A model generated the notes under the pieces. The model did no database searches and was not told the origin of the DNA. It was given only the letters and a program-made list of their open reading frames with translations. A program made the position numbers and the translations under genes. From an uncultured Alphaproteobacteria bacterium (lineage in GTDB: Bacteria; Pseudomonadota; Alphaproteobacteria; RF32; CAG-239), in assembly GCA_944390885.1 (NCBI GenBank), contig CALXRP010000003.1, positions 35,004 to 99,003 on the forward strand: 64,000 nt of DNA. Reading direction: 5' to 3'. This document shows positions 2,501-59,872 of the stretch, piece by piece (position 1 is the first letter of the stretch; every line of letters starts with the position of its first letter).

Positions 2501-2613
2501 CCGCCCCTCAGGCTTGAGGGGAGAGGGGTTTCACTTTCGGTTTTTGCTCCAAAACCTAAGCTATTCGCAAAGGGCACCCAATCGTGCCGGATGAGGGATT
2601 GTGCATTAAAGTT

Positions 2614-3209
2614 TTGTCATTCTCGGGCTTGAAGTCGATAGTTGGTGAGAACGAGTGCAAATCTCTAGCTTCAGCTTAGATTTGTACGAAGTCTGAACCC
2701 TACGGGACGCAATTGCATTCGGCGTCGCGTGCCGCAGGCACTGGGACTGCCGGATAAAATCGCTGAGCTTGCGAAGTGCCAAGGGGCCCGCGTGCGGGAA
2801 TTTACACCCGAGAATCCACAGGCGACGGCCTGAGCGATCGGTTGTCGGAATTGTGCCCTGAGGATCGCGTTGCTCCATTGCTTTCCGCGGTTAAGATTGT
2901 GCTTTGAAGGGTGGATCCCCGGTATCTTTTTCTTACGTCATTGCCGGACTTGATCCGGCAATCCACGTTAATAAATTAGCTTTATTGTTGACCTGGATCC
3001 CCGGGTCACACCCTCAGGGTGACGCCAAATGGATCCCCGGGTCAAGCCCGGGGATGACATAATAAAAAACGCAGCCCGGGGATGACCTGCACGGCAGGCG
3101 CGCGGCAAGTTGACAGCACTGTACCACAGAGGCCGCGTTGCTATGGCGGGGTCTGTGAATGGCGTTGTGCTTTGAAGGGTGGATTGCCGGGTCGAAGCCC
3201 GGCAATGAC
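2614..3209. repeat. Cluster of GC-rich palindromic composite repeats (locus 1 of 3)
   Basis: Multiple copies of an approximately 29-nt palindrome, GTCATYSCCGGGCTTGACCCGGSRATSAC, are present in both orientations. Conserved modules also recur (ccacaggcgacggcctgagcgatcggttgtcggaattgtgccc; ctgcacggcaggcgcgcggc; ccgcgttgct..ggcgg..tgtgaatgg..ttgtgctttgaagggtggat). Near-identical modules occur at 19525-19855 and 59448-59872. Spurious ORFs 2606..2878, 2968..3234 and 3014..3247 lie inside. Confidence 0.6.
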
Positions 3210-3237
3210 ATAAAGAAAATAAGGCAGGATACAAAAG

Positions 3238-3346: not shown

Positions 3347-5245
3347 TTAGTACCGCGGGCGGGTTTCTATTTCTTTGCCGATTTCACCGTTTGCAATGTA
3401 GTCATCAACACAATTTGCTCCGCGGCAGCGTTTCAGCACCGTGGCATTCCGGCCTTTGGTCAACCCTCTGACCTGCATTGACGGCACGTAGACTTCATCG
3501 ACAATAATCTTAAACGTAATGTAATTAACATTGCCGTACTCATCTATAATATAGACCTTCACATGATAGGTTCCGCCGTCTTTCGGCATCGGCGTTCCGT
3601 AGAACGTCATTGTTTTTTCATCGAAGGTCAGCCAATCCGGCAGCGGGCTGTCATCTATCAATCCGGCTTTAAATGTCAGGTTGCCGCGAGCATTGAGATC
3701 TTTCAGAGCATCTTCCGGAATGGTATAGAGATAATCCTGTCCGGTTTCCAGTTTTTGATCAGGAATGTCTTCCGTTGACAAATTAACCGGCGGACGTTTG
3801 GACGGCACATTCAACAGATACGGACGATTATCCGGCAGAAAATCGCCATCACGCCATTTTTCCAGCGTTGTATGCAGATAAACGGCAATTTTAGACGGTT
3901 TTTCACCCAACATATAATAAGGTAGTGCGTCAAGCCCCAGCGCAGCATAAAGGTTTCCGAGCGAGGCCTGTAGTTCGATATAGGCCTTAGAAGCTTTGAC
4001 CTCATCAGCAATGGCACGCGCGGCCTCCAACAAAGATTTCGAATCGCGGCTGCCCAGTTTTACCGTAATGTCTTCGGCAATGTCTTCCGATACGTTGGCG
4101 ATTTCAATATTAATCTGATAATCTTCCAGCGCCGACATATAAGCAGCCCAGCCGACATACAGCTGGCTTAAGACCAGGTTGGTCATCCGCTGGCGGCGCA
4201 AGGCTTCCAGCTCGCCTTCCCGCGGGTTTCTGACATCTTCAAAAACATGATAGCCGATTTCCTGAGCTTTGCGGCTCCAGACTTTGTTGTAATAGGAAGG
4301 GTTGCTTTGATAATCATTTTGAGTGGTGGATTTGAACTCCTGAATGGTAAACTCCAGGTTCTCGTCAATATTCACCATATCGCGCATTTTGAGTTCCGGG
4401 CGGTTGGTCAGAGCCAGCCATTCCATATCGGCCAGCGGCGTGCGAATATCCGGCAGGGCAAAATTGCCGTACAACTTGCCGACCAGTTTGTATTCCGTTG
4501 CCGGATGAAAACCCATTAAAGCGGCCAGTTTGGTCTCGGCCGTTTCCATTCCGCGTTTTAACTCGGACAAGTTTTTAACGGCTTCCATATATTCGCGCTT
4601 TAACACCAATTTATCTGTCGGCAGATACTGATTTAATTTTGCAAGGTCTTTGGCCTGAGCATTCAGCTCGTCAACCTCCAGCGTTAAGACCTCTATCATA
4701 TCATCAATCACCGGCAGCAGGCGCTGTGCCGTCAGAGCCTGCCAATAAAGCACGCGGGTTTCCTGCAGCAGGTTGTGAATAACTTTGCGGCTCTGCTCAA
4801 AAGCCAGATTTTTGCGGTATTCCTGATCGACGGTCTGATAATAAACCGTACTCATATCCAAAAGGTTCCAGGCCAGCCGGAGCTCGGAATTGGCATCGGA
4901 CAGAGAATCGGGGCTCAGGTATCCGGCCTGCCCCATAATCTCGGGGATTTGGTTGACCGGCGACTTTCCGGCCTTTATCAAACTTTCTTCATAACTGACA
5001 ACGCGGCGGGTAAAGTTATATTTCAAGGCCAGCGCCATTGTCATATACATATCTATCGGCTTTGAGATTTTGCGCGGCTGGTTTAAGTACATATTCTGCA
5101 TATCCACGTCGGCGCGGATTGCGCTGTCCCAATCGGAATAAGTCGCCGATGATACGGTTGTTTCACTAACGGAATATTCTTCGCGCGGGCCGCAAGAAAC
5201 AACAAAAAACATGCCAAAAACCAAACATGCCAATATTTTTTTCAT
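3347..5245 (-). CDS. TolC/NodT-family outer-membrane lipoprotein with C-terminal Ig-like (cadherin-like) domain
   Basis: Signal peptide with lipobox (FFVVSCG). Long coiled-coil-rich body with the two-repeat organisation typical of outer membrane efflux proteins. C-terminal approximately 90 aa (LPDWLTFDEKTMTFYGTPMPKDGGTYHVKVYIIDEYGNVN) resembles putative-Ig/dystroglycan-type domains. Terminator-like hairpin just downstream (about 3320-3345). Confidence 0.5.
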   Translation of the reverse strand: MKKILACLVFGMFFVVSCGPREEYSVSETTVSSATYSDWDSAIRADVDMQNMYLNQPRKISKPIDMYMTMALALKYNFTRRVVSYEESLIKAGKSPVNQIPEIMGQAGYLSPDSLSDANSELRLAWNLLDMSTVYYQTVDQEYRKNLAFEQSRKVIHNLLQETRVLYWQALTAQRLLPVIDDMIEVLTLEVDELNAQAKDLAKLNQYLPTDKLVLKREYMEAVKNLSELKRGMETAETKLAALMGFHPATEYKLVGKLYGNFALPDIRTPLADMEWLALTNRPELKMRDMVNIDENLEFTIQEFKSTTQNDYQSNPSYYNKVWSRKAQEIGYHVFEDVRNPREGELEALRRQRMTNLVLSQLYVGWAAYMSALEDYQINIEIANVSEDIAEDITVKLGSRDSKSLLEAARAIADEVKASKAYIELQASLGNLYAALGLDALPYYMLGEKPSKIAVYLHTTLEKWRDGDFLPDNRPYLLNVPSKRPPVNLSTEDIPDQKLETGQDYLYTIPEDALKDLNARGNLTFKAGLIDDSPLPDWLTFDEKTMTFYGTPMPKDGGTYHVKVYIIDEYGNVNYITFKIIVDEVYVPSMQVRGLTKGRNATVLKRCRGANCVDDYIANGEIGKEIETRPRY

Positions 5246-15846: not shown

Positions 15847-18800
15847 TTACAGCTCCTTTACATAAGAAACACCCGGAAGCCCGCGGATTTTGCTCAAAAT
15901 ATCATTGGCAAAAGCGTAGCCTCCCGCCAGTTGGATACGGATATCCCAATCATTGTTTTCCGGTTTTAAATATATCTTATTAACGCCGTTTCTATCATGG
16001 CGCAGAATTTCTTTTAACGGCGCAACAGCCTCGACACTGTTCAGCCCGATGATCAGTCCGTTTACTCCGTCAGCAATTGCCTGATCCAGGGTTTCGACCG
16101 AATTAATCATAACCCGAGGGTTAGCGCCTTCTTCCTGCTTTTCAACCGTCACACCGACCAGAAGCGGCAGTCCTGAATTGATGGTGTCTTCATATTTTGC
16201 CAGCAAGTCAGAGAACAAAATTCCCTCAAAACCGCTGGATGCGTCCGACAAACCGAGAAAAGCATATTTGTTGCCGTTTTTGCTGATGCGCTTTTGAAAA
16301 GTAGTAACGCAGCCGGCCAGTTTGGCACGGACAGTGTCTCCGACCTTAACGCCGTTCATAACTTCCGCACAGCTTTTAACCCCCAAACGCTCCATGCCGG
16401 AACGATAGCTGTCTAACGGATGCGCCGAGAGGTAAAAGCCTACGGCCTCGGCCTCGAGTTTGAGTTTTTCCAATTCAGGCCAGTCGGGCTTTTCTGCCAG
16501 TTTGACTTTTGACTGGAGTTCTTCTGTCCCGAACAGAGAAGACTGCGAGCTGGTTTTCAGCTCATTGGCAGAAGAAATATGCTGCATAATCGTATCAACA
16601 TTGGCAAAAAGTTTGCCGCGGTTTTTCTCCAGGCAATCGAAAGCGCCGGCTTTAATCATATTTTCCAGCTGGCGGCGGTTGCTGTTGGCCAGCGGCATCC
16701 GGTGGATGAAATCAGAAATATCCTTAAACAGGCCGCCCTGTTTGCGGATCTCTTCAATTACTTTCATATTAGCCATACCCACGCCTTTAATCGCGGCCAG
16801 CGCATAACGAATATTACCGTCTTCCACCGTAAAGTCGGCGCCGGATTTATTGATGTCCGGCTGCAAAACCTTAATGCCCATTTTTTTACATTCTTCTTTG
16901 TAAAAAAGCAGCTTGTCGGTATTGGTGATATCAAACGCCATGATGGCGCACATAAACTCGACAGGATAATGCGCTTTCAGATAAGCGGTCTGGTATGAAA
17001 TCAGCGAATAGGCCGCGGCGTGAGATTTGTTAAAACCATAGGACGCAAATTTTTCCATCTGGTCAAAAATTTTGGTGGCGACGTCGGCGTCAATTCCTTT
17101 GGCAACGGCACCTTCGGTAAACATTTTGCGCTGTTTCGGAATCTCGTCGCGCATTTTTTTACCCATAACCTTACGCAGCTTATCCGCACCGCCCATCGTA
17201 TAGCCGCCCAGAGCCTGGGCAATTTTCATAACCTGTTCCTGATAAACCATAATGCCATAGGTTTCATCAAGAATCGGCGCAAGATCCGGGTGGAGATAAG
17301 TTATCTCTTCTTCGCCGTGCTTGCGGCGAATGTAGCTCGGAATATTGTCCATCGGCCCCGGGCGGTACAATGATACGATAGCGATCAAATCTTCAAAACG
17401 GTCCGGCTTGATTTGTTTGTGAACATCCTGCATACCGGCAGATTCAAACTGGAATACGCCGATTGTATCGCCCCGCTGCATCAGTTCATAAGTCGGCTTG
17501 TCATCAAGCGGAATATCACTCATAATCAGCTCGACGCCATAATCTTTTTTTACCCAATCGACGGCGCGCTGAATGACGGTGAGGGTTTTTAAGCCCAAGA
17601 AGTCAAACTTAATCAGGCCGGTTTCTTCAACAAATTTCATATCATACTGGGTAACCGGCATATCGGAGCGCGGATCTTTATACAGCGGTGTCAATTCTTC
17701 CAACGGACGGTCACCGATAACCACACCGGCGGCATGAACACCGGAGTGGCGGTATAAACCTTCCAATTTCATGGCGATGTCAAAAAGTTTGTTGACCTGC
17801 GGGTCGTTAACGCGCATTTCTTCCAATTCCGGCACCTGGTCGAGAGACTCCTGTAAGGTCGGATTTTTACCCTGAACGCCGGGAGGAATCATTTTACTGA
17901 TGCGGTCGGCCTGGGAATAAGGCATTTGCAAAACGCGGGCAACGTCGCGAATCACCGCCTTGGACTGTAGCTTACCGTAAGTAATAATCTGCGCGACATG
18001 ATCATAGCCGTATTTTTTTTGAACATATTCGATTGTTTTGCCGCGATTTTCCTGACAGAAGTCAACGTCAAAGTCCGGCATATTGACACGTTCCGGATTT
18101 AAGAAACGTTCAAACAGCAGGTTTAATTTTATCGGATCCAAGTCGGTAATCCGGAGCGACCAGGCAACAATTGAACCGGCACCGGAGCCACGTCCCGGCC
18201 CGACGGGAACGCCGTGGTCTTTTGACCATTGGATAAAGTCAGACACGATGAGAAAATATCCCGGGAAACCCATTTTTTTGATGACGCTTAACTCATATTC
18301 CAAGCGGGCGTAATATTCTTCATCAATTTTCTTGCGTTCTTCTTCCGTCATCTCCGGCGTATAAACCGTGGCTTCCATACGTTTCCGCAGTCCCAAATGC
18401 GCCTGTTCGTCAATATAGTCATCCTGGGTTTTGCCGTCCGGACATTCAAAAATCGGCAGCAGCGGGTTGACCTTTGAAGAAAGATAATTGCAGCGAATGG
18501 CAATGTTCACGGTATTTTGCACCGCTTCCGGCAGATCTTTGAACAGTTCAACCATTTCTTCCTGCGAGCGCAGGCGGTTGTTCGGCGAAAAACGTTTGCG
18601 GTTCGGGTTGGCAACAACTTCACCCGCGGCAATGCAAACCAGTGCGTCGTGCGCCTCGTACATGTCGGTATCAAAAAAGAAAGCCTCGTTGGTTGCCACC
18701 AGCGGAATATTGTATTTATAGGCCAAATCGATAAACGTATCTTCCGTCTTTTGTTCTTCTTCCAGGCCGATACGGGCTATTTCCATATATAAGCGGTCGC

Positions 18801-19317
18801 CGAAATATTTTTGCAATTCCAGCAGCGTGCTCTCCGCCTCCGGCGCGCGGTTTTCCAGCAGCAAACGGCCTATCGGGCCTTCGACGCCGCCGGTCAGCAT
18901 AATCAGCCCGGCATTGAATTTTTCCAGATCCGCCATGGTAATTTGCGGTTTTTCCTGCGGGTTCGGCAAATCAAGATAAGCCCGTTTCATCAGGTGCATA
19001 ATATTGCTATAGCCCTCGGCGTTCATAACCAGCAAAACAATCTTATCCGGTTCGACGATTTTTCCTTTGCATTTGAGCAAATCCTGCGAATCGGGATTGC
19101 GCAGATAGAACTGAGAACCGAGAATCGGTTTAACCCCTTCATCGGAAGCATATTTGGAAAAAGCTTTTCCGCCGAAAATATTGGCCGTATCGGTTACGGC
19201 AATTGCCGCCACGCCCTCATCATGAAGCCGGTGGATCAGTTTGGGCACAAGCATTGCGCCCTCAGACAAAGAATAAGCGGTATGCACCCGCAGATGTACA
19301 AATTTCGGTTCTGACAT
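15847..19317 (-). CDS. dnaE: DNA polymerase III alpha subunit
   Basis: 1156 aa. N-terminal PHP domain (KFVHLRVHTAYSLSEGA), the polymerase core and a C-terminal OB fold. Length and motifs are typical of DnaE. Confidence 0.95.
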   Translation of the reverse strand: MSEPKFVHLRVHTAYSLSEGAMLVPKLIHRLHDEGVAAIAVTDTANIFGGKAFSKYASDEGVKPILGSQFYLRNPDSQDLLKCKGKIVEPDKIVLLVMNAEGYSNIMHLMKRAYLDLPNPQEKPQITMADLEKFNAGLIMLTGGVEGPIGRLLLENRAPEAESTLLELQKYFGDRLYMEIARIGLEEEQKTEDTFIDLAYKYNIPLVATNEAFFFDTDMYEAHDALVCIAAGEVVANPNRKRFSPNNRLRSQEEMVELFKDLPEAVQNTVNIAIRCNYLSSKVNPLLPIFECPDGKTQDDYIDEQAHLGLRKRMEATVYTPEMTEEERKKIDEEYYARLEYELSVIKKMGFPGYFLIVSDFIQWSKDHGVPVGPGRGSGAGSIVAWSLRITDLDPIKLNLLFERFLNPERVNMPDFDVDFCQENRGKTIEYVQKKYGYDHVAQIITYGKLQSKAVIRDVARVLQMPYSQADRISKMIPPGVQGKNPTLQESLDQVPELEEMRVNDPQVNKLFDIAMKLEGLYRHSGVHAAGVVIGDRPLEELTPLYKDPRSDMPVTQYDMKFVEETGLIKFDFLGLKTLTVIQRAVDWVKKDYGVELIMSDIPLDDKPTYELMQRGDTIGVFQFESAGMQDVHKQIKPDRFEDLIAIVSLYRPGPMDNIPSYIRRKHGEEEITYLHPDLAPILDETYGIMVYQEQVMKIAQALGGYTMGGADKLRKVMGKKMRDEIPKQRKMFTEGAVAKGIDADVATKIFDQMEKFASYGFNKSHAAAYSLISYQTAYLKAHYPVEFMCAIMAFDITNTDKLLFYKEECKKMGIKVLQPDINKSGADFTVEDGNIRYALAAIKGVGMANMKVIEEIRKQGGLFKDISDFIHRMPLANSNRRQLENMIKAGAFDCLEKNRGKLFANVDTIMQHISSANELKTSSQSSLFGTEELQSKVKLAEKPDWPELEKLKLEAEAVGFYLSAHPLDSYRSGMERLGVKSCAEVMNGVKVGDTVRAKLAGCVTTFQKRISKNGNKYAFLGLSDASSGFEGILFSDLLAKYEDTINSGLPLLVGVTVEKQEEGANPRVMINSVETLDQAIADGVNGLIIGLNSVEAVAPLKEILRHDRNGVNKIYLKPENNDWDIRIQLAGGYAFANDILSKIRGLPGVSYVKEL

Positions 19318-19469
19318 TTATTATAAATTCCTTGCTCAGATAATAGCGATTTTAGCGAACGGACTCAATAAAAAAAAGCGCCGGTTTTGAAATATCAACA
19401 GGAGTGGTATTATTTTACTTTTATACCGTTTACTTTAGCCAAAATCCCCGCCCCATTTTTCAATATAGC

Positions 19470-19498
19470 TTGACACATACCTTTTGTTGTGCTATAGT
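19470..19498 (+). promoter_or_regulatory. Near-consensus sigma70 promoter (TTGACA-17-TATAGT) pointing into the repeat leader and the Cys-rich protein gene
   Basis: ttgaca at 19470-19475, a 17-nt spacer, then tatagt at 19493-19498. Confidence 0.45.
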
Positions 19499-19524
19499 AT
19501 CTTTATTGTCGTTCTTAAGCATCT

Positions 19525-19855
19525 GTCATCCCCGGGCTTTGACCCGGGGATCCACCTGCACGGCAGGCGCGCGGCGAATTGAATACACTGTGCTCAAGAG
19601 ACCGCGTTGCTATGACGGGGTTTGTGAATGACAAGGTGCTTTGAAATATTTGTCATTCTCGGGCTACTTGTTTTTCAAGTCATCCCCGGGCTTAACCCGG
19701 GGATCCAGAATGACAATAAAGCTAATTTATTTGACTTGGATTGCCGGGTCAAGCCCGGCAATGACAAGAAAGAAACAAGCCCGGGGATGACGAAAGAAAA
19801 AAAGAGCCCGGCAATGACTAAAAAAATAAAGCGCCCGGCAAAGACAAAGAAAAAA
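19525..19855. repeat. GC-rich palindromic composite repeat cluster (locus 2), forming the 5' leader of the Cys-rich protein gene
   Basis: Contains gtcatccccgggctttgacccggggatccac, gtcattctcggg, gtcatccccgggcttaacccggggatccag and ggattgccgggtcaagcccggcaatgac. It ends in 3-4 tandem half-sites, agcccggSRatgac plus an A-run. ORF 19628..19885 inside it is spurious. Confidence 0.6.
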
Positions 19856-19897
19856 GGACGACAATATAGAAAAGAATTTTTATAAGGGAGGAAGCCG

Positions 19898-21295
19898 ATG
19901 AAAAATTATAACACTATGCTACACATGAAACTTAACTCTGCGGTGTCGGTTCTTGCTGTTGCCGCTGCTTTTGCGGTCTTTCTCCCGCCTTCCAATGCTT
20001 CAGCTGGCATTTGTTTTCTGCCGGACTGTCAGGATGATGAGATTGTTCAGGGCGATATTAATATGAACATCAACTCCGATACCGAGTATTGCGAGGAGAA
20101 AGGCTATACCTATTATTCTTCCGGTGAATGTCCGCAATATCAAGCTGTTATCGGAACCTGTTCCCGTGATGATCATTACTTGAAATGTGATGCCGTTACC
20201 TGGTGTAAGAATAACGGGTATAATACACAAACCTGTTCTCTGCCGTCCTTTGTTAACGACCAATGTCCGAACGGCAAACCTTATTACAAAGGTTGTAAAG
20301 AAGACCGGCCGAGAGCCTGCCGTGAACAAGGCTATGTCAACTCTTGTTCTCCGGGACGGTTGTATAAATCGACAAACCGTTGTCCGTGGGATAGCTCTTA
20401 CGGCAAATGCTGTACTGCTTCGCCGTCGACAGGTTGTCCGTCTAATTATAAAGTAACTTGTGATTCTTCCCGCGGATCATCAGGAAGGGATACCTGCGGT
20501 TATACCTGTTACAGATGTTGTAATGATACCTGTCCGTCCGGGACTTCTAAAAACTATTCAGGTTCTATATCTTCTTATACAGAGTGCGGAACCGCTTGCC
20601 GGAGATGTAAAGACTGCACTACGGGAAGCCGCTCTTATACCGGTGCTTATGCCGGAACTTCAGAATGCGGTACTTGTTATAAATGTAATGACACATGTTC
20701 TTCCGGATCAAAAAGCTCTAGTTGCGGAAGCGGATATGAATCTTACCGCAGCGGTTCGACTGAATGCGGAAGTGCTTGCTACTCCTGCCGCAAACATACT
20801 CACTCTTACTCCTGCCCGAGCGGGTATCAATCCAGCTCTTGCGGATCAGGTTACACAACTTCCAGCACAAGATCTAAATCTTGTTCTTGTGGGGCAACTT
20901 ACGGTACCTGCTATAAATGCTCGAAAAATACTAATACCGGCAATAATAACAACAATAACTACACCGGTGGCGGAAATACCGGAAATAACAATAATAACAA
21001 CAATAACACCAATACAGGAACAACCACGCCTGCTGTTGATCCTGATGCTTGCAAATCAACTTATATTATTGGGGTAAGCTATGCAGGATGGTGTGACTGG
21101 TGTGATAAAGAAGGTGGACCTAAATGTATTTGGTGTAAAAGAGAACGGCGCTGTACAACCAACAGCGGTAAAGACAAATGGTTAAATGATGGATATTATA
21201 TTGCAAAAAGTGGTTATGATGGTGAAGTTAACTGCCAAGCAGCTCTTGCAGGTGGCGGCAAAAACTGCGATGAAGGTACAATTTATCCCGAATAA
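19898..21295 (+). CDS. Secreted cysteine-rich tandem-repeat protein with poly-Asn tract and PSI-like C-terminal domain
   Basis: RBS agggagg. Signal peptide MKLNSAVSVLAVAAAFAVFLPPSNASA. At least 4 tandem modules of about 30 aa (C.SG...S.S.Y.ECG.AC..C). A T/G/N-rich tract (NNNNNNYTGGGNTGNNNNNNNNTNTG). C-terminal CKSTYIIGVSYAGWCDWCDKEGGPKCIWCKRERRC. A terminator hairpin follows. Confidence 0.6.
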   Translation: MKNYNTMLHMKLNSAVSVLAVAAAFAVFLPPSNASAGICFLPDCQDDEIVQGDINMNINSDTEYCEEKGYTYYSSGECPQYQAVIGTCSRDDHYLKCDAVTWCKNNGYNTQTCSLPSFVNDQCPNGKPYYKGCKEDRPRACREQGYVNSCSPGRLYKSTNRCPWDSSYGKCCTASPSTGCPSNYKVTCDSSRGSSGRDTCGYTCYRCCNDTCPSGTSKNYSGSISSYTECGTACRRCKDCTTGSRSYTGAYAGTSECGTCYKCNDTCSSGSKSSSCGSGYESYRSGSTECGSACYSCRKHTHSYSCPSGYQSSSCGSGYTTSSTRSKSCSCGATYGTCYKCSKNTNTGNNNNNNYTGGGNTGNNNNNNNNTNTGTTTPAVDPDACKSTYIIGVSYAGWCDWCDKEGGPKCIWCKRERRCTTNSGKDKWLNDGYYIAKSGYDGEVNCQAALAGGGKNCDEGTIYPE

Positions 21296-21302
21296 ATTAA
21301 AT

Positions 21303-21342
21303 AAGATCTCTCTCCAGACTATGGAGAGAGATCTCTTTTTAA
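21303..21342. terminator. Bidirectional rho-independent terminator between the Cys-rich gene and prfA
   Basis: aagatctctctcc agactatgg agagagatctctt followed by ttttt; A/T runs on both sides. Confidence 0.5.
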
Positions 21343-21441
21343 GATAAGACGTTAGACTGATATTTTTTTGGAAGATTTTAAAAATATTACGCTTGTCCGG
21401 TGATTAATATTCTTCTTTACAAGCAACTGCCGGACTTTTTT

Positions 21442-22515
21442 CTAATCCAGTTCGGCCAGACGCTGTGCCTGATCTTCCATAACCAGCGCGTCAATAATCT
21501 CGTCCAGTGCATCGCCGGAAACGACCTCATCCAGCTTGTACAGCGTTAAGTTAATCCGGTGGTCGGTTACGCGTCCCTGCGGATAGTTATAGGTGCGAAT
21601 CCGTTCGCTGCGGTCGCCACTGCCGATTTGCAGTTTGCGTTTTTCCGAATAAGCGGAATCAATGCTTTCTTTTTGCATATCATATAATTTTGCCCGCAGG
21701 TGGTTCATGGCTTTTTCCTTATTTTTAAACTGCGAGCGGTCATCCTGGCACTGAACGACAACGCCGGTCGGAATATGAGTAATGCGTACTGCAGACTCCG
21801 TCCGGTTAACGTGTTGTCCGCCGGCGCCGGAGGCACGGTAAACATCAATCTTCAAATCGGCCGGATTGATATACATATCCACTTCTTCAATTTCCGGCAA
21901 AACGGCTACCGTGGCGGCGGAAGTATGGACGCGTCCCTGGGATTCCGTTACCGGAACGCGCTGAACACGGTGGGCGCCGGATTCAAATTTTAATTTTGCA
22001 AAAACATCTTTGCCGGTGATCTTAGCCGAGGCTTGCTTGTAACCGCCCAGACCGTTTTCATCGGCGTCAAGAATCTCAAATTTCCATCCTTGGGTTGCCG
22101 AATAACGCTGATACATTTCAAACAGCACGGCGGCAAACAAGGCGGCCTCATCACCACCGGTACCGGCGCGAACTTCAAGAATCGCATTTTTCTCGTCGTC
22201 CTCGTCTTTCGGCAACAGGGCAATTTTGATTTCTTTTTCCAATTCGGGAAGTTTTTCTTTCAGCTCATAAAACTCGGCTTCGGCCATTTCGCGCATTTCT
22301 TTGTCGAGCGACGAATCTTCCATCATCGCTTTGGCATCGTTCATATTGGCCTCGGCATGGTTATAATTGCGGATTTTTTCAACAACCGGCGCCAACTGTG
22401 AAATCTCTTTGTTCATTTTCACCAGCTCATCGGAACTTAATCCGGGACTGACGACCAGAGCCTCCAACTCATCGTAACGATTAACCACATTAGCGAGTTT
22501 TTCTGCAAAATTCAT
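21442..22515 (-). CDS. prfA: Peptide chain release factor 1
   Basis: 357 aa. Carries the GGQ motif (ASGAGGQHVNRTESAVRITH) and the PVT tripeptide (RVPVTESQGR) diagnostic of RF1 rather than the SPF of RF2. No frameshift site. Confidence 0.85.
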   Translation of the reverse strand: MNFAEKLANVVNRYDELEALVVSPGLSSDELVKMNKEISQLAPVVEKIRNYNHAEANMNDAKAMMEDSSLDKEMREMAEAEFYELKEKLPELEKEIKIALLPKDEDDEKNAILEVRAGTGGDEAALFAAVLFEMYQRYSATQGWKFEILDADENGLGGYKQASAKITGKDVFAKLKFESGAHRVQRVPVTESQGRVHTSAATVAVLPEIEEVDMYINPADLKIDVYRASGAGGQHVNRTESAVRITHIPTGVVVQCQDDRSQFKNKEKAMNHLRAKLYDMQKESIDSAYSEKRKLQIGSGDRSERIRTYNYPQGRVTDHRINLTLYKLDEVVSGDALDEIIDALVMEDQAQRLAELD

Positions 22516-30163: not shown

Positions 30164-30238
30164 GCCGCTATAGCTCAGTGGTAGAGCACACCCTTGGTAA
30201 GGGTGGGGTCGTAAGTCCGATTCTTACTAGCGGCACCA
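30164..30238 (+). tRNA. tRNA-Thr (anticodon GGU)
   Basis: 75-nt cloverleaf. Acceptor gccgcta/tagcggc, D-arm gctc-agtggta-gagc, anticodon stem caccc/gggtg with loop ttGGTaa, T-arm gtaag-tccgatt-cttac, discriminator A, encoded CCA. Confidence 0.85.
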
Positions 30239-30961
30239 TTTATCAGTTTCTGGCGTTTTTAGTAGTTCATCGAATGGCTTAACTATTGAAAACGCTATAT
30301 TTTTTCCTTCAGTTTTGCAGTCCGATAATATTAATTTCAAAATGTCTCTTTTTTCAGAAATAATCGGACTTTTTAAGAATTTTCCTACATTTGCAGCTAT
30401 TTCCGCGATATTTGCTAGTATTTCATCAGTTTCAGCATCAATCTCAAGGTATTTATCCATATCTTTTTGTAGTTTTTCTTTTTCCATTTCAATTTCAGTT
30501 TTTAATTCATTATACATTTTTTCATCGCATTTGCCTCTCATATAGCCACGAAACAAGGTTTTGAGCTGTTCATCTAATTGATTTATCTTGAGAGTAATAT
30601 CACGTTTGAGAGTCGCTGTATTTACTCTTTCTTCTTTAAGCTGCTTTTTGACTTCGGCTTTAATATTTTTTAGCATATCGTCACTAACGGCAAGAGGTAA
30701 CGACAATTCTTTTTCAAGCTGGGCGAGGATTTTGGCTTCATTTAATGGTTTCTGACTGCATTTTGAACGTAATTTGTTGCATTTGAGATAATTATAAGAG
30801 TGTTTGTCATCTTTTACTTTGGTTTCACAAGTCATCAAGCTGCCGCAACAACCACATCTGACTAAACCGGTAACCTTCTTTCCGGCATAATCTTTCAACC
30901 CGTCCCATATAATCGGCAGAGGTGCTTGCGCTGTAATTATTTTCCAAAAGCCAGTTTTCAA
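30227..30961 (-). pseudogene. C-terminal remnant of a large serine recombinase (zinc-ribbon and coiled-coil region); no catalytic resolvase domain
   Basis: CGCCGSLMTCETKVKDDKHSYNYLKCNKLRSKCSQK resembles a recombinase zinc-beta-ribbon, followed by a long coiled coil (EQLKTLFRGYMRGKCDEKMYNELKTEIEMEKEKLQKDMDKYLE). There is no N-terminal catalytic Ser domain. Its 3' end overlaps the tRNA-Thr 3' end by 12 nt. Confidence 0.5.
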
Positions 30962-31404
30962 AATTCTTTAACATCTCAAATCTCCTTTATACCAAATTAG
31001 CCAATCAATACCGGTTCAGAAAACACAGCCACCATAACCCGCTGCAATCTTTTACACTCAGCCATGCAATCGCTAAAATATTGATAAGGTGTTGGAAGAA
31101 TTGTGTCATTAAGTTTTACATACCACATAGTTTTTTCCTTTCATAAATAGTGTTTTGCTCATTAACTATTTATATTATGCGGTATATTTTCCCATCCGCG
31201 AGCCCCTAAAACGCTAGTTGCCAACGACATTTTGCTACGATTTGGACGGGATTACTAAGGAACGGACAAAAATCCTTTAACTTTTCGGTAAATCAGAAAA
31301 GAAGTTTTGTATAAATGATGTTTTTGATGTGATATATTAATTTGTCCAAGCCTGAAATAAAAGTACTAAAACAAAAATTTCAATATTAAGGACTATGTAT
31401 TCCT

Positions 31405-32397
31405 CTATATTAAATCTGCATAAGGCAATGATTTGATATAGTCTTCCATATATTGCCAATCAGGATCACCCTTTTGCGTTATTGGCAAACGAATAGTCTC
31501 ATTACAAAATTTATTATAAAAAGCTTTTCTGCCAAATTGAAATTTATACTTATTTTTCTTCATAATTGTTGTTATAAACAATGCATTATATTTATTTAGT
31601 TTCTCGTTATGGAAACAGTATATTTCATCTGATGCTGTAAATTCATTTTCTACATAAAAAGCAGATGCAAATGTATTATATACTATGCAATTTTTTTCTA
31701 TAAAAAGAGGATTGCTAATCTGATCTGTTTGGCTATTGTTAAATTCGGAAGCTGAATAATAATCAATATCGCCACTAATTCGATCTTCAGCAATTAATCG
31801 TTGCCCATGTGTTATTCGTGTCCATAGTTTTTTATCTATAAAGGAAAATTCGCCCCATTTTTTTATATCTTTATAGCAAGTTGATATGTTTAAAGTTTCA
31901 ATAGGATTAAATTTTACATTTTTTGTTATATTATTTGTATAATTCTCCATATAATTCCAATCAGGAGCATTGTTTTTATCTACAGGAAGAAGGATATTTT
32001 CTCTTTCCAATCTACTATTACTTATCTCTCTTCCAAAATTATACTTATAACGTATTTTTTCAAAAACTGGCTTAAGATATAGAGCTATATTTTTTGTTAA
32101 CATTCTACCTTTAGGCCAAAAAACCGTAACATGATCGGATGCTATAAAATTATAATTATGATAAAAAAGATATCCGACACTACCACTATTGCTAATTGTT
32201 AAGCAATTATTATAGACAATTACTTTAGCTCCTTTTTTTGTTGTTAAAGGGGGTGCTACATAGTCATTAATGCCATTATTATCTTTAGAGGAAGAAACAT
32301 AAGGAATATCTCCTATAATATGCTCATCTTCTGTAAAGCGAACACCTCTTTTATAATCAAAAACCTCAGAAAAAGGAAAATATTTAAATTGCTTCAT
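31405..32397 (-). CDS. Restriction-modification specificity subunit with two tandem target-recognition domains (BcgIB-like)
   Basis: 330 aa. Two homologous halves each end ...FGR...LP....G.PDWxYMExY (NFGREISNSRLERENILLPVDKNNAPDWNYMENY and QFGRKAFYNKFCNETIRLPITQKGDPDWQYMEDY). 14-nt overlap with the upstream methylase-nuclease gene. Very AT-rich. Confidence 0.5.
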   Translation of the reverse strand: MKQFKYFPFSEVFDYKRGVRFTEDEHIIGDIPYVSSSKDNNGINDYVAPPLTTKKGAKVIVYNNCLTISNSGSVGYLFYHNYNFIASDHVTVFWPKGRMLTKNIALYLKPVFEKIRYKYNFGREISNSRLERENILLPVDKNNAPDWNYMENYTNNITKNVKFNPIETLNISTCYKDIKKWGEFSFIDKKLWTRITHGQRLIAEDRISGDIDYYSASEFNNSQTDQISNPLFIEKNCIVYNTFASAFYVENEFTASDEIYCFHNEKLNKYNALFITTIMKKNKYKFQFGRKAFYNKFCNETIRLPITQKGDPDWQYMEDYIKSLPYADLI

Positions 32398-34345
32398 TTT
32401 TATTTTCCTTATAATATGCGCTCAGAATATCAAGCATTTCGGCCTCTGACTTTTCTTCAAATAATATACCGATGTCTTTTTTAGCCTCAAATATCATATA
32501 TTCACGCACAGAATTAATAAAATCCTGTTCAGATAAATTAGAATAATCTGTTTTACTATGTGCATAAATAGTCCACTCATCTTTGGGTTTGATTTTTGTT
32601 TTTACATATATGATATCATCTGGTTTTTCACCATTATTTGTTCCTCTTATTATAGATAATAATTTTTTTTCAATGCTATTCCATTTATTGTAGATATCTG
32701 TTCTGCCTTTATTTTTAGCAAGAACAAAGCCATCGTCTCGCAAATCATAAAAAATTACTTCATCATTATTATAATCAAATGCCCTATTGGTTTCAAAAAT
32801 AGCTATAGCTGTATGAGTAGAAGCATTTGGTTGGAATAAATCCTTTGGCATATTTATTACTGCTTTTAATGTATGTTTTTTTAAGATGTTATCACGAATA
32901 GCTTCATCTTTAAAATACATACTTAGAGGAGCAATAACTATCCCATAACGAGAACAATTATCTAATAACTTTGTTAAAAATGTTATTTCCTTCGGTGTTG
33001 GATCTTCTTTATTTTCCTTGCCGCTGTAAGGAGGATTAATAAAACCAATAGTAGCTTTAAATTCATCTAGCTTTTCTTGTGCTCTACAATCTTTTATCGA
33101 ATCATAATTGTAAATAGATGATTTTCCATCGCCTCTAAACATCATACTTGATATAGCACATATATACATAGTAGGATTTATTTCAAAGCCAAGTAACTGT
33201 GTCTGTTTTACATTAGCAATGGCTTCTTGTTTATCTGTTCTATTGCTTTTTTCAATTTTATTTATAATAGCATTCATCCCAGCAATCAAAAAAGCTCCTG
33301 TTCCACAACATAAATCTACTATTTTATCATTTTCTTTCAAATCGATTAGTTTAGTGAAAAGGGTTGTAATATGGCGAGGAGTCAAAACAATACCTTTTTT
33401 TACATTAGAAACACCTGCATATTTTAAAAATTCTTCATAAAACCTTCCAATAATATCATAATTTGAAGATTTAGCAAAATTACCAGTAAGTAAAGGAATA
33501 ACATTATTTTTTAGTTCATCCAGAATCTGTTTTAAAATATCACTTGTTCTTAATGTAACATCCGTTTTCAAAAATGCTAATTCAGTATCTAATACTTCTA
33601 GCTTTTCAGCCGGAATTCCTTCGTTTTTTAAAACACGAGGAGCTTGAAGTAAGATATTATCCGCTAATGTGGTTGTATCCATAGTGCTATAAGTTGCGGA
33701 GAAAGATCCTGTATTTTTATTATGAAGACATATCATCAAAGCAGACAATAAAATTGGTCTTTTTTGCGAATCTATAGATCTAAGAAGATTATTTATTTTT
33801 TTACTTGAGGAACTTATTTTTGTAACAGCCTCTTCTTCATTCAAACTATTGAATAAAGCTAAAAAAGAGTCTTTATTTACAAAATTCGTAATCTGAGGAA
33901 CAGAAATAATCTTTTGCTCTCTATTGTCTAGCATAAAACAACTAAATTTATATTGATATTCTTTTAATAAATCCCCACTTACAGCAATACCTAAAATTCT
34001 CCATGATTTAAAAACATTTTTTTGAGAATTGTCTAAATTATTTTCTTGAAAACGACTTAAATACCATTTAATGCCACTTACAGCACCCTTTTCTATATCT
34101 TCTAAATCATGTTCTTTCATTGTGGGCTTTTCTTCAACAAGAATAAGCAGCTTATTCTTTCCATCGCAATAAATTCTATCCGGATAACCTTCACGCCCTG
34201 TTTGTCTCTTTGATGAGCAAGATAAAACTTTCTTAATATCATCAGTTAATTTGCTTTTAGAATCATCCCAATCCGCAACATTATATCCTAAATTCTGCAA
34301 AACAGTTGTAACAGATGGTGTTATATTCTTATCTTTCCTTGCCAT
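32384..34345 (-). CDS. Fused PD-ExK nuclease plus gamma-class N6-adenine DNA methyltransferase (BcgIA-like Type IIB R-M subunit)
   Basis: 653 aa. Putative PD-ExK near the N-terminus (YPDRIYCDGKNKLLILVEEKP). SAM motif I VDLCCGTGAFL precedes catalytic motif IV FINPPYSG, the gamma-class order. No hsdR in the vicinity. Size and gene order match BcgIA (637 aa)/BcgIB (341 aa). Confidence 0.6.
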   Translation of the reverse strand: MARKDKNITPSVTTVLQNLGYNVADWDDSKSKLTDDIKKVLSCSSKRQTGREGYPDRIYCDGKNKLLILVEEKPTMKEHDLEDIEKGAVSGIKWYLSRFQENNLDNSQKNVFKSWRILGIAVSGDLLKEYQYKFSCFMLDNREQKIISVPQITNFVNKDSFLALFNSLNEEEAVTKISSSSKKINNLLRSIDSQKRPILLSALMICLHNKNTGSFSATYSTMDTTTLADNILLQAPRVLKNEGIPAEKLEVLDTELAFLKTDVTLRTSDILKQILDELKNNVIPLLTGNFAKSSNYDIIGRFYEEFLKYAGVSNVKKGIVLTPRHITTLFTKLIDLKENDKIVDLCCGTGAFLIAGMNAIINKIEKSNRTDKQEAIANVKQTQLLGFEINPTMYICAISSMMFRGDGKSSIYNYDSIKDCRAQEKLDEFKATIGFINPPYSGKENKEDPTPKEITFLTKLLDNCSRYGIVIAPLSMYFKDEAIRDNILKKHTLKAVINMPKDLFQPNASTHTAIAIFETNRAFDYNNDEVIFYDLRDDGFVLAKNKGRTDIYNKWNSIEKKLLSIIRGTNNGEKPDDIIYVKTKIKPKDEWTIYAHSKTDYSNLSEQDFINSVREYMIFEAKKDIGILFEEKSEAEMLDILSAYYKENKNEAI

Positions 34346-34479
34346 AATATTTCCCCGTATAACTATATTTTTATAGTTATACTAATTTTTACACAATAAT
34401 ATAAAAATTTAGTTAATATTAACATTAATTTAATCTTTAGCCATTAACGACATCAAACAACGACTCGTTAAAAAGCTCA

Positions 34480-34590
34480 ACTTTTCTTATTAACCGCTTA
34501 AATTCATCATAATTTTCAGTCCGATAACTGCACAGTATCGCGCACCATTTATTGAAATTCCGCATCTATTGCGGATTTTTTGTTTTTAAA
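34480..34590. repeat. Cassette-flanking repeat, copy 1 (between the R-M genes and GNAT)
   Basis: cttttcttattaaccgcttaaattcatcataattttcagtccgataactgcacag...ttccgcatctattgcggatttttt. It ends in a hairpin plus T-run (ccgcatctattgcgg tttttt). Confidence 0.5.
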
Positions 34591-34764
34591 CAAAAGATTA
34601 TTTAGTCCGATTTTTGAGGTTTTGAAAAGAGCAATTTTGATAAATTGATATGAAATTTCAATTTTATTAGTAATTGATTATTAAGGGAAGGCTTGCAAAA
34701 TAGATCTTATTTGCTAGACTTAAATTATTCTGTTTTTTAATTAGGACTTATTGGGAAAATAGAC

Positions 34765-35301
34765 ATGGAATTAAATTCTGAATATTTAACAGAAAGATTA
34801 GAAATTAGGATTTTAGAAGCTCATTTTGATCTTGCTAAAAAATTGCTCAATTATGTTAAAAAGAATCAAGAGCATTTTTATTTTATGTATGGTTTTGTTG
34901 ATTATGATTCTGTGGAGGAAATGTATGATTTTCTAAAAAGAAGAAAGTTAACAAATAATCCTTTTTATGGTCTTTTTTTGAAAGGATCGGATGAATTAAT
35001 CGGTTCTATTTCAATGACCGGATATGATAAAAAAAACGGCAAAGCTGAAATTGGATATACATTGGATAAAAATTTTGTTCATCAAGGTTATATGACTGAA
35101 GCTGTTACTTTTTTTGCAGAAGAGGTGATGCGTCAGGGATGTCGCAAGTTGATTGCATATATTGATATTGAAAATGTAGATAGTCAAAAAGTTTGTGAAA
35201 GATGTGGATTTATTAAAGAGGCTAGGTTAATTAAAGAAAAATTTGATCGACATAAGAGTGAATTTGTTGATATTTGTCTTTATTGTAAGTTTGCCTCTTA
35301 A
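34765..35301 (+). CDS. GNAT-family N-acetyltransferase (RimJ/RimL-like)
   Basis: 178 aa. LEIRILEAHFDLAKKLLNYV..., motif A region IGSISMTGYDKKNGKAEIGYTLDKNFVHQGYMTEAVTFF, then RQGCRKLIAYIDIENVDSQKVCERCGF. Confidence 0.75.
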   Translation: MELNSEYLTERLEIRILEAHFDLAKKLLNYVKKNQEHFYFMYGFVDYDSVEEMYDFLKRRKLTNNPFYGLFLKGSDELIGSISMTGYDKKNGKAEIGYTLDKNFVHQGYMTEAVTFFAEEVMRQGCRKLIAYIDIENVDSQKVCERCGFIKEARLIKEKFDRHKSEFVDICLYCKFAS

Positions 35302-35329
35302 TAAACTCTCATAGCAAATTTTGCTTAAG

Positions 35330-35392
35330 AGGATTCATTTTCATATTCACCAGTCCCGATAACTGCACAGAAAAAGTGCAGCATTTAACACA
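35330..35392. repeat. Cassette-flanking repeat, copy 2 (short form)
   Basis: cagtcccgataactgcacagaaaaagtgcagcatttaacac shares the core with copies 1 and 3. Contains a perfect hairpin ctgcac-agaaaaa-gtgcag. Confidence 0.45.
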
Positions 35393-35427
35393 AAACCTTC
35401 TGATAGGGGGCTGATGTTGGAACGGAC

Positions 35428-36036
35428 TTATAATAGTTTGTGAATATCATATTCATCATAGCCTTCATAATAATAACTGACATTAATGCCTTTCATAAAG
35501 ATTTCTCGTTCATCAATTTTATCTGTCAGAGCATTTTTTAGGAGATGTTTTATTTCAATATCTTTAACAGGGCTTCTTTCCATTGCTGATAAATAATCTT
35601 CTTTATCAATTTTATTCCAATCAACAACTTTTTTAATTTCTTTCTTAAAGATTAAATCCAGCCAAATTCTTGTTGCGCGGCCGTTTCCTTCCCGGAAAGG
35701 ATGGGCAATATTCATTTCAACATATTTTTCAACAATTTCATCAAAAGTTGATTGAGGCATTTTATCTATATGTTTTAGGGCTTGCTCCAAATACATCACC
35801 GGAGCAAATCTGAAGTTGCCTTTTGATATGTTAACATCACGCATTTTTCCGGCAAAACCATAAATGTCTTCAAACAAATACTTATGAATCTGTTTTAATC
35901 CGGCAAATGTGCCTACTTTTATCTGATTGATTTTGCCACTATCAAAAAACTTTTTAGCCTTTTCTTTACTGAGTTTTTCTTCAATCTTATTCAATTCAAT
36001 TTGATTGGTAATATTCAATTTATTTTCTAAAACCAT
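35428..36036 (-). CDS. Class III Fic-family AMPylator (Fic motif plus C-terminal auto-inhibitory helix)
   Basis: Fic motif [12 protein letters not shown] (HxFx[DE]GNGRxxR). C-terminal [12 protein letters not shown] contains the [ST]xxxE[GN] inhibitory motif (S-YYY-E-G). About 200 aa, like the self-contained NmFic type. The start is likely an internal Met (MVLENK); the track starts at 36048. Confidence 0.75.
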
Positions 36037-36162
36037 TATAAAAATCATCTTTCATAAAAAATGCATTATATTTTGATAATAATATAAAATTGCTAAAATT
36101 TACATAATAAAATCAAATTGCCAACACTTCAGATTGTTGTTCCAAGCTATCTTCCAATGACT

Positions 36163-59447: not shown

Positions 59448-59872
59448 CCCGGCGGGGGATGTGAAGGGTTTTGTGCTTTGAAGGGTGGATTGCCGGTATC
59501 TTTTTCTTACGTCATTGCTGGGCTTGACCCGGCAATCCACGTTAATAAAAATGCCTTATGATTGACTTGGATCCCCGGGTCAAGCCCGGGGATGACTTTA
59601 AAAAAATAAAAAGCCGGGGATGACCGGTACGACCGGTGGCGCTCAATCTGTAACATTATGCTGCAGAGACCGCGTTGCTCCGGCGGAGTTTGTGGAGGTT
59701 TTTGTGCTTTGAAGTTTATGTCATTCTCGGGCTTGACCCGAGAATCCACAGGCGACGGCCTGAACGGTCAGTTGTCGGAATTGTGCCCCGTACCCCGCGT
59801 TGCTCCGGCATTTTCTGTGAATGGCTTTGTGCTTTGAAGGGTGGATTGCCGGATCAAGTCCGGCAATGACAT
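59448..59872. repeat. GC-rich palindromic composite repeat cluster (locus 3), abutting the intact 86-aa gene
   Basis: Modules match locus 1 (ttgtgctttgaagggtggattgccgg; gtcattgctgggcttgacccggcaatccac; ttgacttggatccccgggtcaagcccggggatgac; ccacaggcgacggcctgaacggtcagttgtcggaattgtgcccc; ccgcgttgctccggc). ORFs 59268..59561, 59507..59749 and 59675..59869 inside it are spurious. Confidence 0.6.

Follow-up and report, generated by a model that had tools for sequence, protein, structure and literature searches.

The open reading frame (ORF) at 19898-21295 on the forward strand encodes a 465-residue protein that is a real, fast-evolving member of a lineage-specific family of Sec-exported, disulfide-rich modular proteins. 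It lies in a 64-kb window, by which we mean the whole 64,000-nucleotide stretch of contig CALXRP010000003.1 analyzed here. The host lineage of the family is that of the uncultured gut Alphaproteobacteria. Taken together, the data lead us to favor, with somewhat more confidence than doubt, a variable family of secreted Cys-rich proteins that has its own promoter cassette, leaders built from repeats that affect expression, and an adhesin- or lectin-type role. [quoted passage not shown] New here are the family of proteins, its cassette, and how tightly the repeats are associated with the gap between promoter and ribosome-binding site (RBS).

A word-indexed search returned 368 homologues, which were all unnamed or "hypothetical". 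All of them come from metagenome-assembled genomes (MAGs) of gut "Alphaproteobacteria bacterium", so the confinement to one lineage that was raised in the original prediction holds for every homologue found. An exhaustive profile search among 1.84 billion proteins gave 174 clusters at 50% identity and no more. In a collection of species-representative genomes, a scan with single-protein patterns found nothing; an alignment-based scan recovered 119 genomic relatives. The sources of the MAGs include human, Hadza, mouse, and water deer. The family is multicopy, with at least 18, 12, 15, 21, 9, and 5 copies per MAG, figures that rest on the 80 listed of the 119 relatives, from six MAG species; many copies lie at contig ends. 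No paralogue was found within the 64-kb window by tblastn. Across the family, there is almost no variation in the signal peptide or the first ~210 residues, and the number of modules varies. By BLAST, the last 90 residues of 113 relatives group into 41 clusters. The C-terminal head of the window protein (87 residues) belongs to a type common to 12 of the 113.

The protein contains 48 Cys residues (10.3%). That it carries a signal peptide, as first predicted, was confirmed by inspection and by conservation in the family. The n-region has two lysine residues (K2 and K11), and it is followed by a hydrophobic stretch (AVSVLAVAAAFAVFL) and the motif A34-x-A36 directly before G37. A34 and G37 are invariant or almost so. 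By inspection, the basic n-region, the h-region, the small-x-small site, and the lack of a twin-arginine are those of a substrate of Sec and signal peptidase I (SPase I), and the predicted N-terminus of the mature protein is G-I-C-F-L-P-D-C. We rejected a lipoprotein, as there is no canonical lipobox ([LVI][ASTVI][GAS]C) after the h-region. The residues before C39 are A-G-I/V, which is bulky at position -1, and C39 lies 9 residues past the h-region.

The mature protein is modular. Three 38-residue "C-x3-GY" modules start at residues 65, 103, and 141. They are followed by five CPSG units at residues 180-343; the original prediction had counted at least four tandem modules of ~30 residues, which is borne out, and had not listed the three 38-residue units. 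The number of CPSG modules differs among paralogues, and these modules are the most variable folded part between strains. The Asn/Thr/Gly tract noted earlier is present at residues ~344-378 and is predicted to be disordered. Its description as Dictyostelium-style holds for composition only. The AlphaFold2 model, obtained with a family alignment of 109 sequences, has a mean predicted local distance difference test (pLDDT) score of 75.9. The score is mostly 78-96 over residues 61-345 (mostly 82-96 over 61-180) and is below 50 for residues 346-377 of the linker. The modules are modeled as a helix plus a β-hairpin or as β-hairpins alone, and these confidently predicted disulfide-rich modules may be new folds. 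The number of Cys residues is even in 77 of the 113 relatives, which fits structural disulfides. The poly-Asn linker is encoded by a mixture of AAT and AAC codons; its length differs in every strain or paralogue compared, and some have no linker.

The evolution of the gene is fast at its own locus. We compared the slot between dnaE and prfA (corresponding to window 19318-21441) in the contigs (L082-L089) that encode a PrfA 100% identical to that of the window. The slot is variable. Two of these contigs carry this gene, with products of 467 and 453 residues. The two proteins differ from that of the window at 23 and 43 positions, against 0 in PrfA, and the changes cluster in the CPSG modules and in the linker.

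Comparison with known proteins gave no relatives outside the family. An hmmscan of the protein against Pfam-A returned 0 families at E <= 10, including PSI, EGF, and TNFR, and there were 0 matches in NCBIfam for the window protein and five relatives. A search of the PDB sequences with the family profile also gave 0 matches. No similarity to the folds of solved structures was found, whether of the PSI/EGF/TNFR type or any other. The earlier suggestion that the C-terminus resembles PSI/EGF-type eukaryotic domains is thus not upheld. The Pfam field was "-" for 120 of 120 homologues among the matches listed, an exact look-up of P0001 gave no match, and we found no paper describing this Cys-rich family.

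The sole functional lead comes from distant, longer members (P0163, P0164, P0167, and P0171), in which the family N-terminus is joined to an Lcl_C domain (PF07603) that scores above Pfam's cut-off. Lcl is an extracellular adhesin that binds glycosaminoglycans (PMC11162425). This suggests binding proteins with interchangeable heads. We propose that the family would act as a repertoire of binding proteins outside the cell or on its surface, each with a rigid disulfide-bonded stalk and an interchangeable head, and that the repertoire would diversify under pressure from the host, phage, or partner cells. An adhesin- or lectin-like surface function is put forward here as a tentative assignment.

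We also considered functions other than binding or adhesion, namely those of a periplasmic Cys-rich metal or redox protein or a secreted antimicrobial toxin with polymorphic heads. The spacings Cx2-3Cx2Cx2-3C recur in the modules and are reminiscent of the CxxCxxC of zinc or Fe-S proteins, and a constant N-terminus with a variable C-terminus recalls polymorphic toxins. An Fe-S or zinc protein was rejected because the signal is of the Sec and not the Tat type and no Fer4, zinc-ribbon, or other domain was matched in Pfam. A polymorphic toxin was rejected because Pfam shows no toxin domain and no candidate immunity gene adjoins the gene; a terminator and then the convergent prfA lie downstream. 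The mostly even Cys counts and the β-hairpin model favor structural disulfides, and the Lcl_C domain of the distant members is of the adhesin type. We regard such functions as very unlikely.

The family genes share a promoter cassette of the form TAGCCAAAAT-N11-TTTTCA-N7-TTGACA-N17-TATAGT. The original prediction had named TTGACA-17-TATAGT, upstream of the repeats, as the promoter. This site scores 11/12 and has the TG extension; all other sites in 19200-21500 score 9/12. Its two hexamers lie within the 16-18-nt spacing of σ70 promoters. A BLAST search showed that window 19433-19517 is kept upstream of ~50 paralogues at 75-83% identity. Of the 72 gene starts with sufficient DNA upstream, 57 are preceded by the strict pattern TTGAC(A/T)-N14-16-TGnTATAGT. 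When 59 non-identical promoters are aligned, TAGCCAAAAT, TTTTCA, TTGAC, and TGnTATAGT are near-invariant, and the spacers and the sequence further upstream vary. Conservation in blocks is the pattern that functional selection would be expected to leave. In the 64-kb window, there is a single cassette (19436-19498). Exact matches in 33 loci were on the gene strand every time, and a metagenome-wide scan gave five full cassettes with sufficient DNA downstream, each of which preceded a family gene. Since the cassette is conserved upstream of paralogues in other species, the promoter assignment is well supported, and site 19470-19498 very probably drives this gene.

Transcription would then start at about 19505 and run through a structured leader of ~390 nt. 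Three observations lead us to this view, and we consider it a well-supported prediction from the sequence. Where paralogues have no repeats, the cassette lies right next to the Shine-Dalgarno sequence, at a distance of 23 nt. The leader has no predicted intrinsic terminator between the promoter and the ATG, and a scan found no σ70-like site of at least 9/12 on the + strand between 19499 and 19897. All 18 complete ORFs with leaders longer than 250 nt are intact, encoding 335-629 residues. A true start downstream of the repeats, with the cassette serving some other purpose, could use a weak site (AAGACA-18-TATAGA, near 19835-19870) or a promoter made by a repeat module. This weak pair of hexamers lies just 5' of the conserved junction, and MITEs such as Correia elements can create promoters. 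The weak site, however, does not have the key T at the last -10 position and falls below the threshold of the scan. The repeat-free paralogues leave no space for a second promoter, and the cassette is confined to these genes. A downstream start is therefore scarcely credible.

The gap between the cassette and the start codon is filled with repeats (Table 1). The Shine-Dalgarno sequence GGGAGG is at 19886-19891, 6 nt upstream of the ATG. The distance from the -10 hexamer to the codon of a conserved internal Met (residue 7) is 417 nt here and 46-535 nt among the paralogues. The promoter-to-RBS distance varies because dispersed palindromic REP/MITE-like modules sit between the two. The leader lengths are bimodal: 12 copies have 46-67 nt and are repeat-free, and the remainder have 134-535 nt. 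The longer leaders combine the palindromic unit P, arrays of half-P units, module Y, and a ~110-nt module X, and the junction motif AAAAGAATTTTTAT precedes their RBS. The stable hairpins foreseen in the original prediction are supported by folding. The RNA 19505-19915 folds to -164.3 kcal/mol, compared to -106.8 ± 5.9 kcal/mol for shuffled sequences (z = -9.7).

There are 16 occurrences of the core repeat motif in the window, where 1.07 would be expected. We counted 65 full P palindromes in the window and the loci, with a loop of 5-6 nt and at least four common compensatory stem variants. As many-copy, short, imperfect palindromes that form mosaic clusters and are mostly extragenic, these units are of the REP type and of the type of bacterial interspersed mosaic elements (BIMEs). 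The composite unit has inverted arms at 19673-19707 and 19737-19771, each of 35 nt and 80% complementary, as in the terminal inverted repeats of a MITE, and the P-spacer-P unit is present or absent between strains. The borders of the modules are nested and overlapping. In module Y, two small hairpins show modest covariation with a structure specified by hand; RNAalifold gave no consensus structure for 36 copies of the module. At the gathering threshold, Rfam identified two tRNAs and nothing else in the window. Small ORFs in the leader (e.g., 19628-19885, 85 residues) were rejected as artefacts of the repeats, as they are broken by indels between strains.

Insertion, deletion, and recombination make for a rapid turnover of the leader modules. 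Compared to the window, the leaders of the two strain copies show a 31-nt duplication, a ~100-nt P-spacer-P deletion, a ~125-nt Y/P insertion, the loss of a 27-nt unit, and an insertion of module X. The block 19679-19766 is absent in L083. The 27-nt half-palindrome unit (GAAAGAAAAAAGAGCCCGGGGATGAC; window 19750-19855) behaves like a variable-number tandem repeat, with 2, 4, or 5 tandem copies between strains (L086, L084, and L088, in which it lies downstream of the alternative gene described below). The flank on the dnaE side is essentially identical between the strains, with one substitution in L083. In the six other contigs the slot holds a different gene, which encodes a Cys-rich lipoprotein-like protein of ~200 residues (MKQYILGSVLCCTALTSGYAIAAC...). 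It has the same promoter cassette, a leader of ~32 nt, and P and half-P repeats downstream. Homology of this protein to the family was rejected (hhalign probability 0.9%).

Copies of the modules are also present away from the leaders, at window 2580-3215 and 59450-59870. Both clusters are intergenic with no family gene adjoining, and both then share the sequence TTACTGCCAAGGATAGTCTTT..., which resembles the 3' end of a small ORF on the minus strand. Modules can also enter the proteins in-frame. In two paralogues, from the MAG BRZ_ER bin57, an antisense Y lies in-frame in the signal-peptide region (L038 4126-4197 and L076 4132-4202). The insert adds 33 residues (FTSSALAAQPLLQIPPEQRGLL.IELP.DASAARL) between the hydrophobic core and the conserved AGICFLPDC. 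An element of ~190 nt was observed within a P-hairpin loop (GTCATTCTCGGGCTTGA, insert, ACCCGAGAATCC) at window 2616-2830, L003 3683-3895, and L079 7278-7482. It is 89-94% identical across these three places in two species and has no Rfam match.

What the leader does is a matter of analogy. MITEs inside transcripts alter RNA processing, and Correia elements and enterobacterial repetitive intergenic consensus (ERIC) elements are cut by RNase III or E within transcripts (PMC10969869). Because Correia and ERIC elements act in this way elsewhere, we tentatively suggest that the leader may affect mRNA stability, processing, or translation. On this view, the mRNA of each copy would have a stability or level of translation set by its own repeat-laden leader. 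The idea of a dedicated leader is not supported: the modules are dispersed, occur 3' of genes and in coding sequence, and are absent from the leaders of 46-67 nt.

These same facts are what would be expected if the leader repeats were neutral selfish or recombination debris, with the gap being a tolerated insertion site and the repeats spreading from one paralogue to another through gene conversion, with no effect on expression. The modules are present in non-family intergenic DNA, 3' of a gene in other strains, and inside coding sequence; they are freely gained and lost between strains; and the paralogues with short leaders manage without them. Their distribution argues otherwise. Within 500 nt upstream of family genes, each locus has 0.3-0.6 P units per 250 nt; elsewhere it has at most 0.08. 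Module Y is strictly sense in the family leaders, with 33 copies sense and 0 antisense. A leader of ~390 nt that folds to -164 kcal/mol is unlikely to be neutral for the fate of the mRNA. We judge neutral debris to be rather unlikely, but a serious contender.

Two further proposals give the leader a larger part. The cassette and the fast-recombining leader together might form a dedicated expression system, in which modules that are gained, lost, or shuffled set or switch the output of each paralogue and so generate antigenic or adhesive variation. We consider this unlikely. Long leaders might also cut the gene off from its promoter, through Rho-dependent termination in the untranslated region or through RNase cleavage. 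Only the copies with short leaders would then be expressed, and the others, this one included, would form a silent reserve that is switched by module turnover, which amounts to phase or antigenic variation. The bimodal leader lengths, the rapid module indels and changes in 27-nt copy number between strains, and the variable heads, which suit an antigenic repertoire, would all agree with this. The intactness of the 18 ORFs behind long leaders and the lack of a predicted intrinsic terminator do not, and no invertase or recombinase adjoins the gene. A silent reserve is, in our estimate, distinctly improbable.

Several observations weigh against a secreted binding protein with an expression-modulating leader, which we nevertheless prefer. 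The palindromes are symmetrical, and compensatory changes in their stems cannot separate selection at the RNA level from that at the DNA level. The repeats also occur outside the leaders and may be neutral passengers. The strict cassette is missing from 15 of the 72 family genes. In Pfam, the window protein itself shows no Lcl_C (PF07603) or other recognizable binding domain. Sec is the only recognizable signal, with no outer-membrane, anchor, or secretion-system signal.

Table 1. Features of the gene, its promoter, and its leader (positions are those of the window).
Feature	Position	Strand	Basis or remark
Upstream box TAGCCAAAAT	19436..19445	+	Among the most conserved blocks of 59 aligned paralogue promoters
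Second box TTTTCA, 7 nt 5' of the -35 hexamer	19457..19462	+	Conservation profile of the aligned promoters
σ70-type promoter: -35 TTGACA, 17-nt spacer, extended -10 TGcTATAGT	19470..19498	+	Scan and conservation in paralogues
Predicted 5' leader of ~390 nt, composed of dispersed repeat modules in a mosaic	19505..19897	+	Start inferred
Palindromic unit P1: GTCAT, 9-bp stem, 6-nt loop, stem, CCA	19525..19553	+	Inverted-repeat search
Module Y, ~92 nt (CCTGCACGGCAGG...GACCGCGTTGCT...GTGCTTTGAA)	19554..19645	+	62 copies in window and loci
Composite in which a spacer separates a P unit from an inverted P unit; MITE-like long hairpin	19679..19766	+	Inverted repeat I3
Four tandem half-P units of 26-27 nt, each followed by an A-rich run	19750..19855	+	Direct-repeat family D1
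Proximal junction AAAAGAATTTTTATAA, then Shine-Dalgarno GGGAGG	19870..19891	+	Common to many paralogues just before the start
Signal peptide, residues 1-36	19898..20005	+	Near-invariant in the family; predicted SPase I cleavage after A34-S-A36, before G37
Constant N-terminal domain: GICFLPDC motif and three 38-residue 4-Cys modules	20006..20434	+	Alignment, AlphaFold2
Five CPSG...ECG..C..C modules, residues 180-343	20435..20926	+	Predicted β-hairpins
Asn/Thr/Gly low-complexity linker, residues 344-378	20927..21031	+	pLDDT < 50
C-terminal head, residues 379-465, 8 Cys, and stop codon	21032..21295	+	One of 41 types
Bidirectional intrinsic terminator hairpin between the gene and convergent prfA	21304..21334	.	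Terminator scan

The gene is flanked by a divergent dnaE (15847-19317, - strand) and a convergent prfA (21442-22515, - strand), which is followed by ispG, rodZ, and ptsP. Elsewhere in the window, a low-GC island (29-32% GC versus ~44%) at 30164-36100 adjoins a tRNA gene (30164-30235). Its genes encode a recombinase zinc-ribbon fragment, HsdS and HsdM of type I restriction-modification, a GNAT acetyltransferase, and a Fic protein, and it is probably an integrated island. Upstream of the first repeat cluster, positions 1740-2580 comprise an AT-rich stretch of ~800 nt with promoter-like hexamers, with no ORF of at least 150 residues and no Rfam match. The same cluster adjoins a gene at 3347-5245 (- strand) for a 632-residue protein with a putative immunoglobulin domain (He_PIG), possibly another surface protein.

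The uncultured gut Alphaproteobacteria are almost unstudied. In them, an unannotated family takes up a visible share of the genome, outpaces the housekeeping genes, and is swapped at the same locus between strains. Such traits are hallmarks of molecules at the interface with the host, phage, or neighboring cells. The family-specific cassette provides a direct handle on the regulator and its regulon. In leaders that range naturally from 46 to 535 nt and combine a few modules, an experiment on the effect of REP/MITE-like repeats within 5' UTRs on expression already exists. If switching by leader modules were true, it would mean that a commensal alphaproteobacterium of the gut has a form of antigenic or adhesive variation.

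The repeats are similar to REP/BIME sequences and to MITEs such as Correia, ERIC, and the Rickettsia palindromic elements. They share short GC-rich palindromes, compensatory stem variants, mosaics, and dispersal between genes and within 5' or 3' UTRs. As with the Rickettsia palindromic elements, one module lies in-frame in a coding region (PMC10969869). The sequences are unrelated to those of the named REP/MITE elements, and what sets the repeats apart is a strong preference for the promoter-to-RBS gap of one gene family. No transposase or REP-associated tyrosine transposase (RAYT) was identified in the 64-kb window and the gene-centered loci, where no dedicated test for RAYT was made. The block 19679-19765 matches the Wolbachia small RNA WsnRNA46 (Rfam RF02625) with 37.4 bits (E ~1e-6), far below the gathering score of 65.3, and membership is thus not established. 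Both are alphaproteobacterial long hairpins with the shared ends GUCAU...GGAUCCAGAA ... UGGAU...AUGAC; the stem interior and the loop differ.

The architecture of the protein recalls the Legionella Lcl and Lcl_C adhesins (PF07603, formerly DUF1566), in which a secreted repeat stalk presents a C-terminal binding domain. Unlike Lcl, the window protein has a stalk of disulfide-rich modules and not of collagen-like repeats, and its head is not Lcl_C. Variable surface families whose 5' region and signal peptide are conserved are also found in Mycoplasma (the Vlp/Vsa lipoproteins), and the variant surface proteins (VSPs) of Giardia are a Cys-rich eukaryotic case. The present family is related to neither in sequence or fold. 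Here the N-terminus is constant and the C-terminus variable, and there is no lipobox, C-terminal transmembrane tail, or homopolymeric phase-variation tract in the promoter. The shared features are the many paralogues per genome, the near-identical promoter, 5' end, and signal peptide, and the variation in repeat number and distal parts. With the Giardia VSPs, the family further has in common its ~10-13% Cys and its CxxC motifs.

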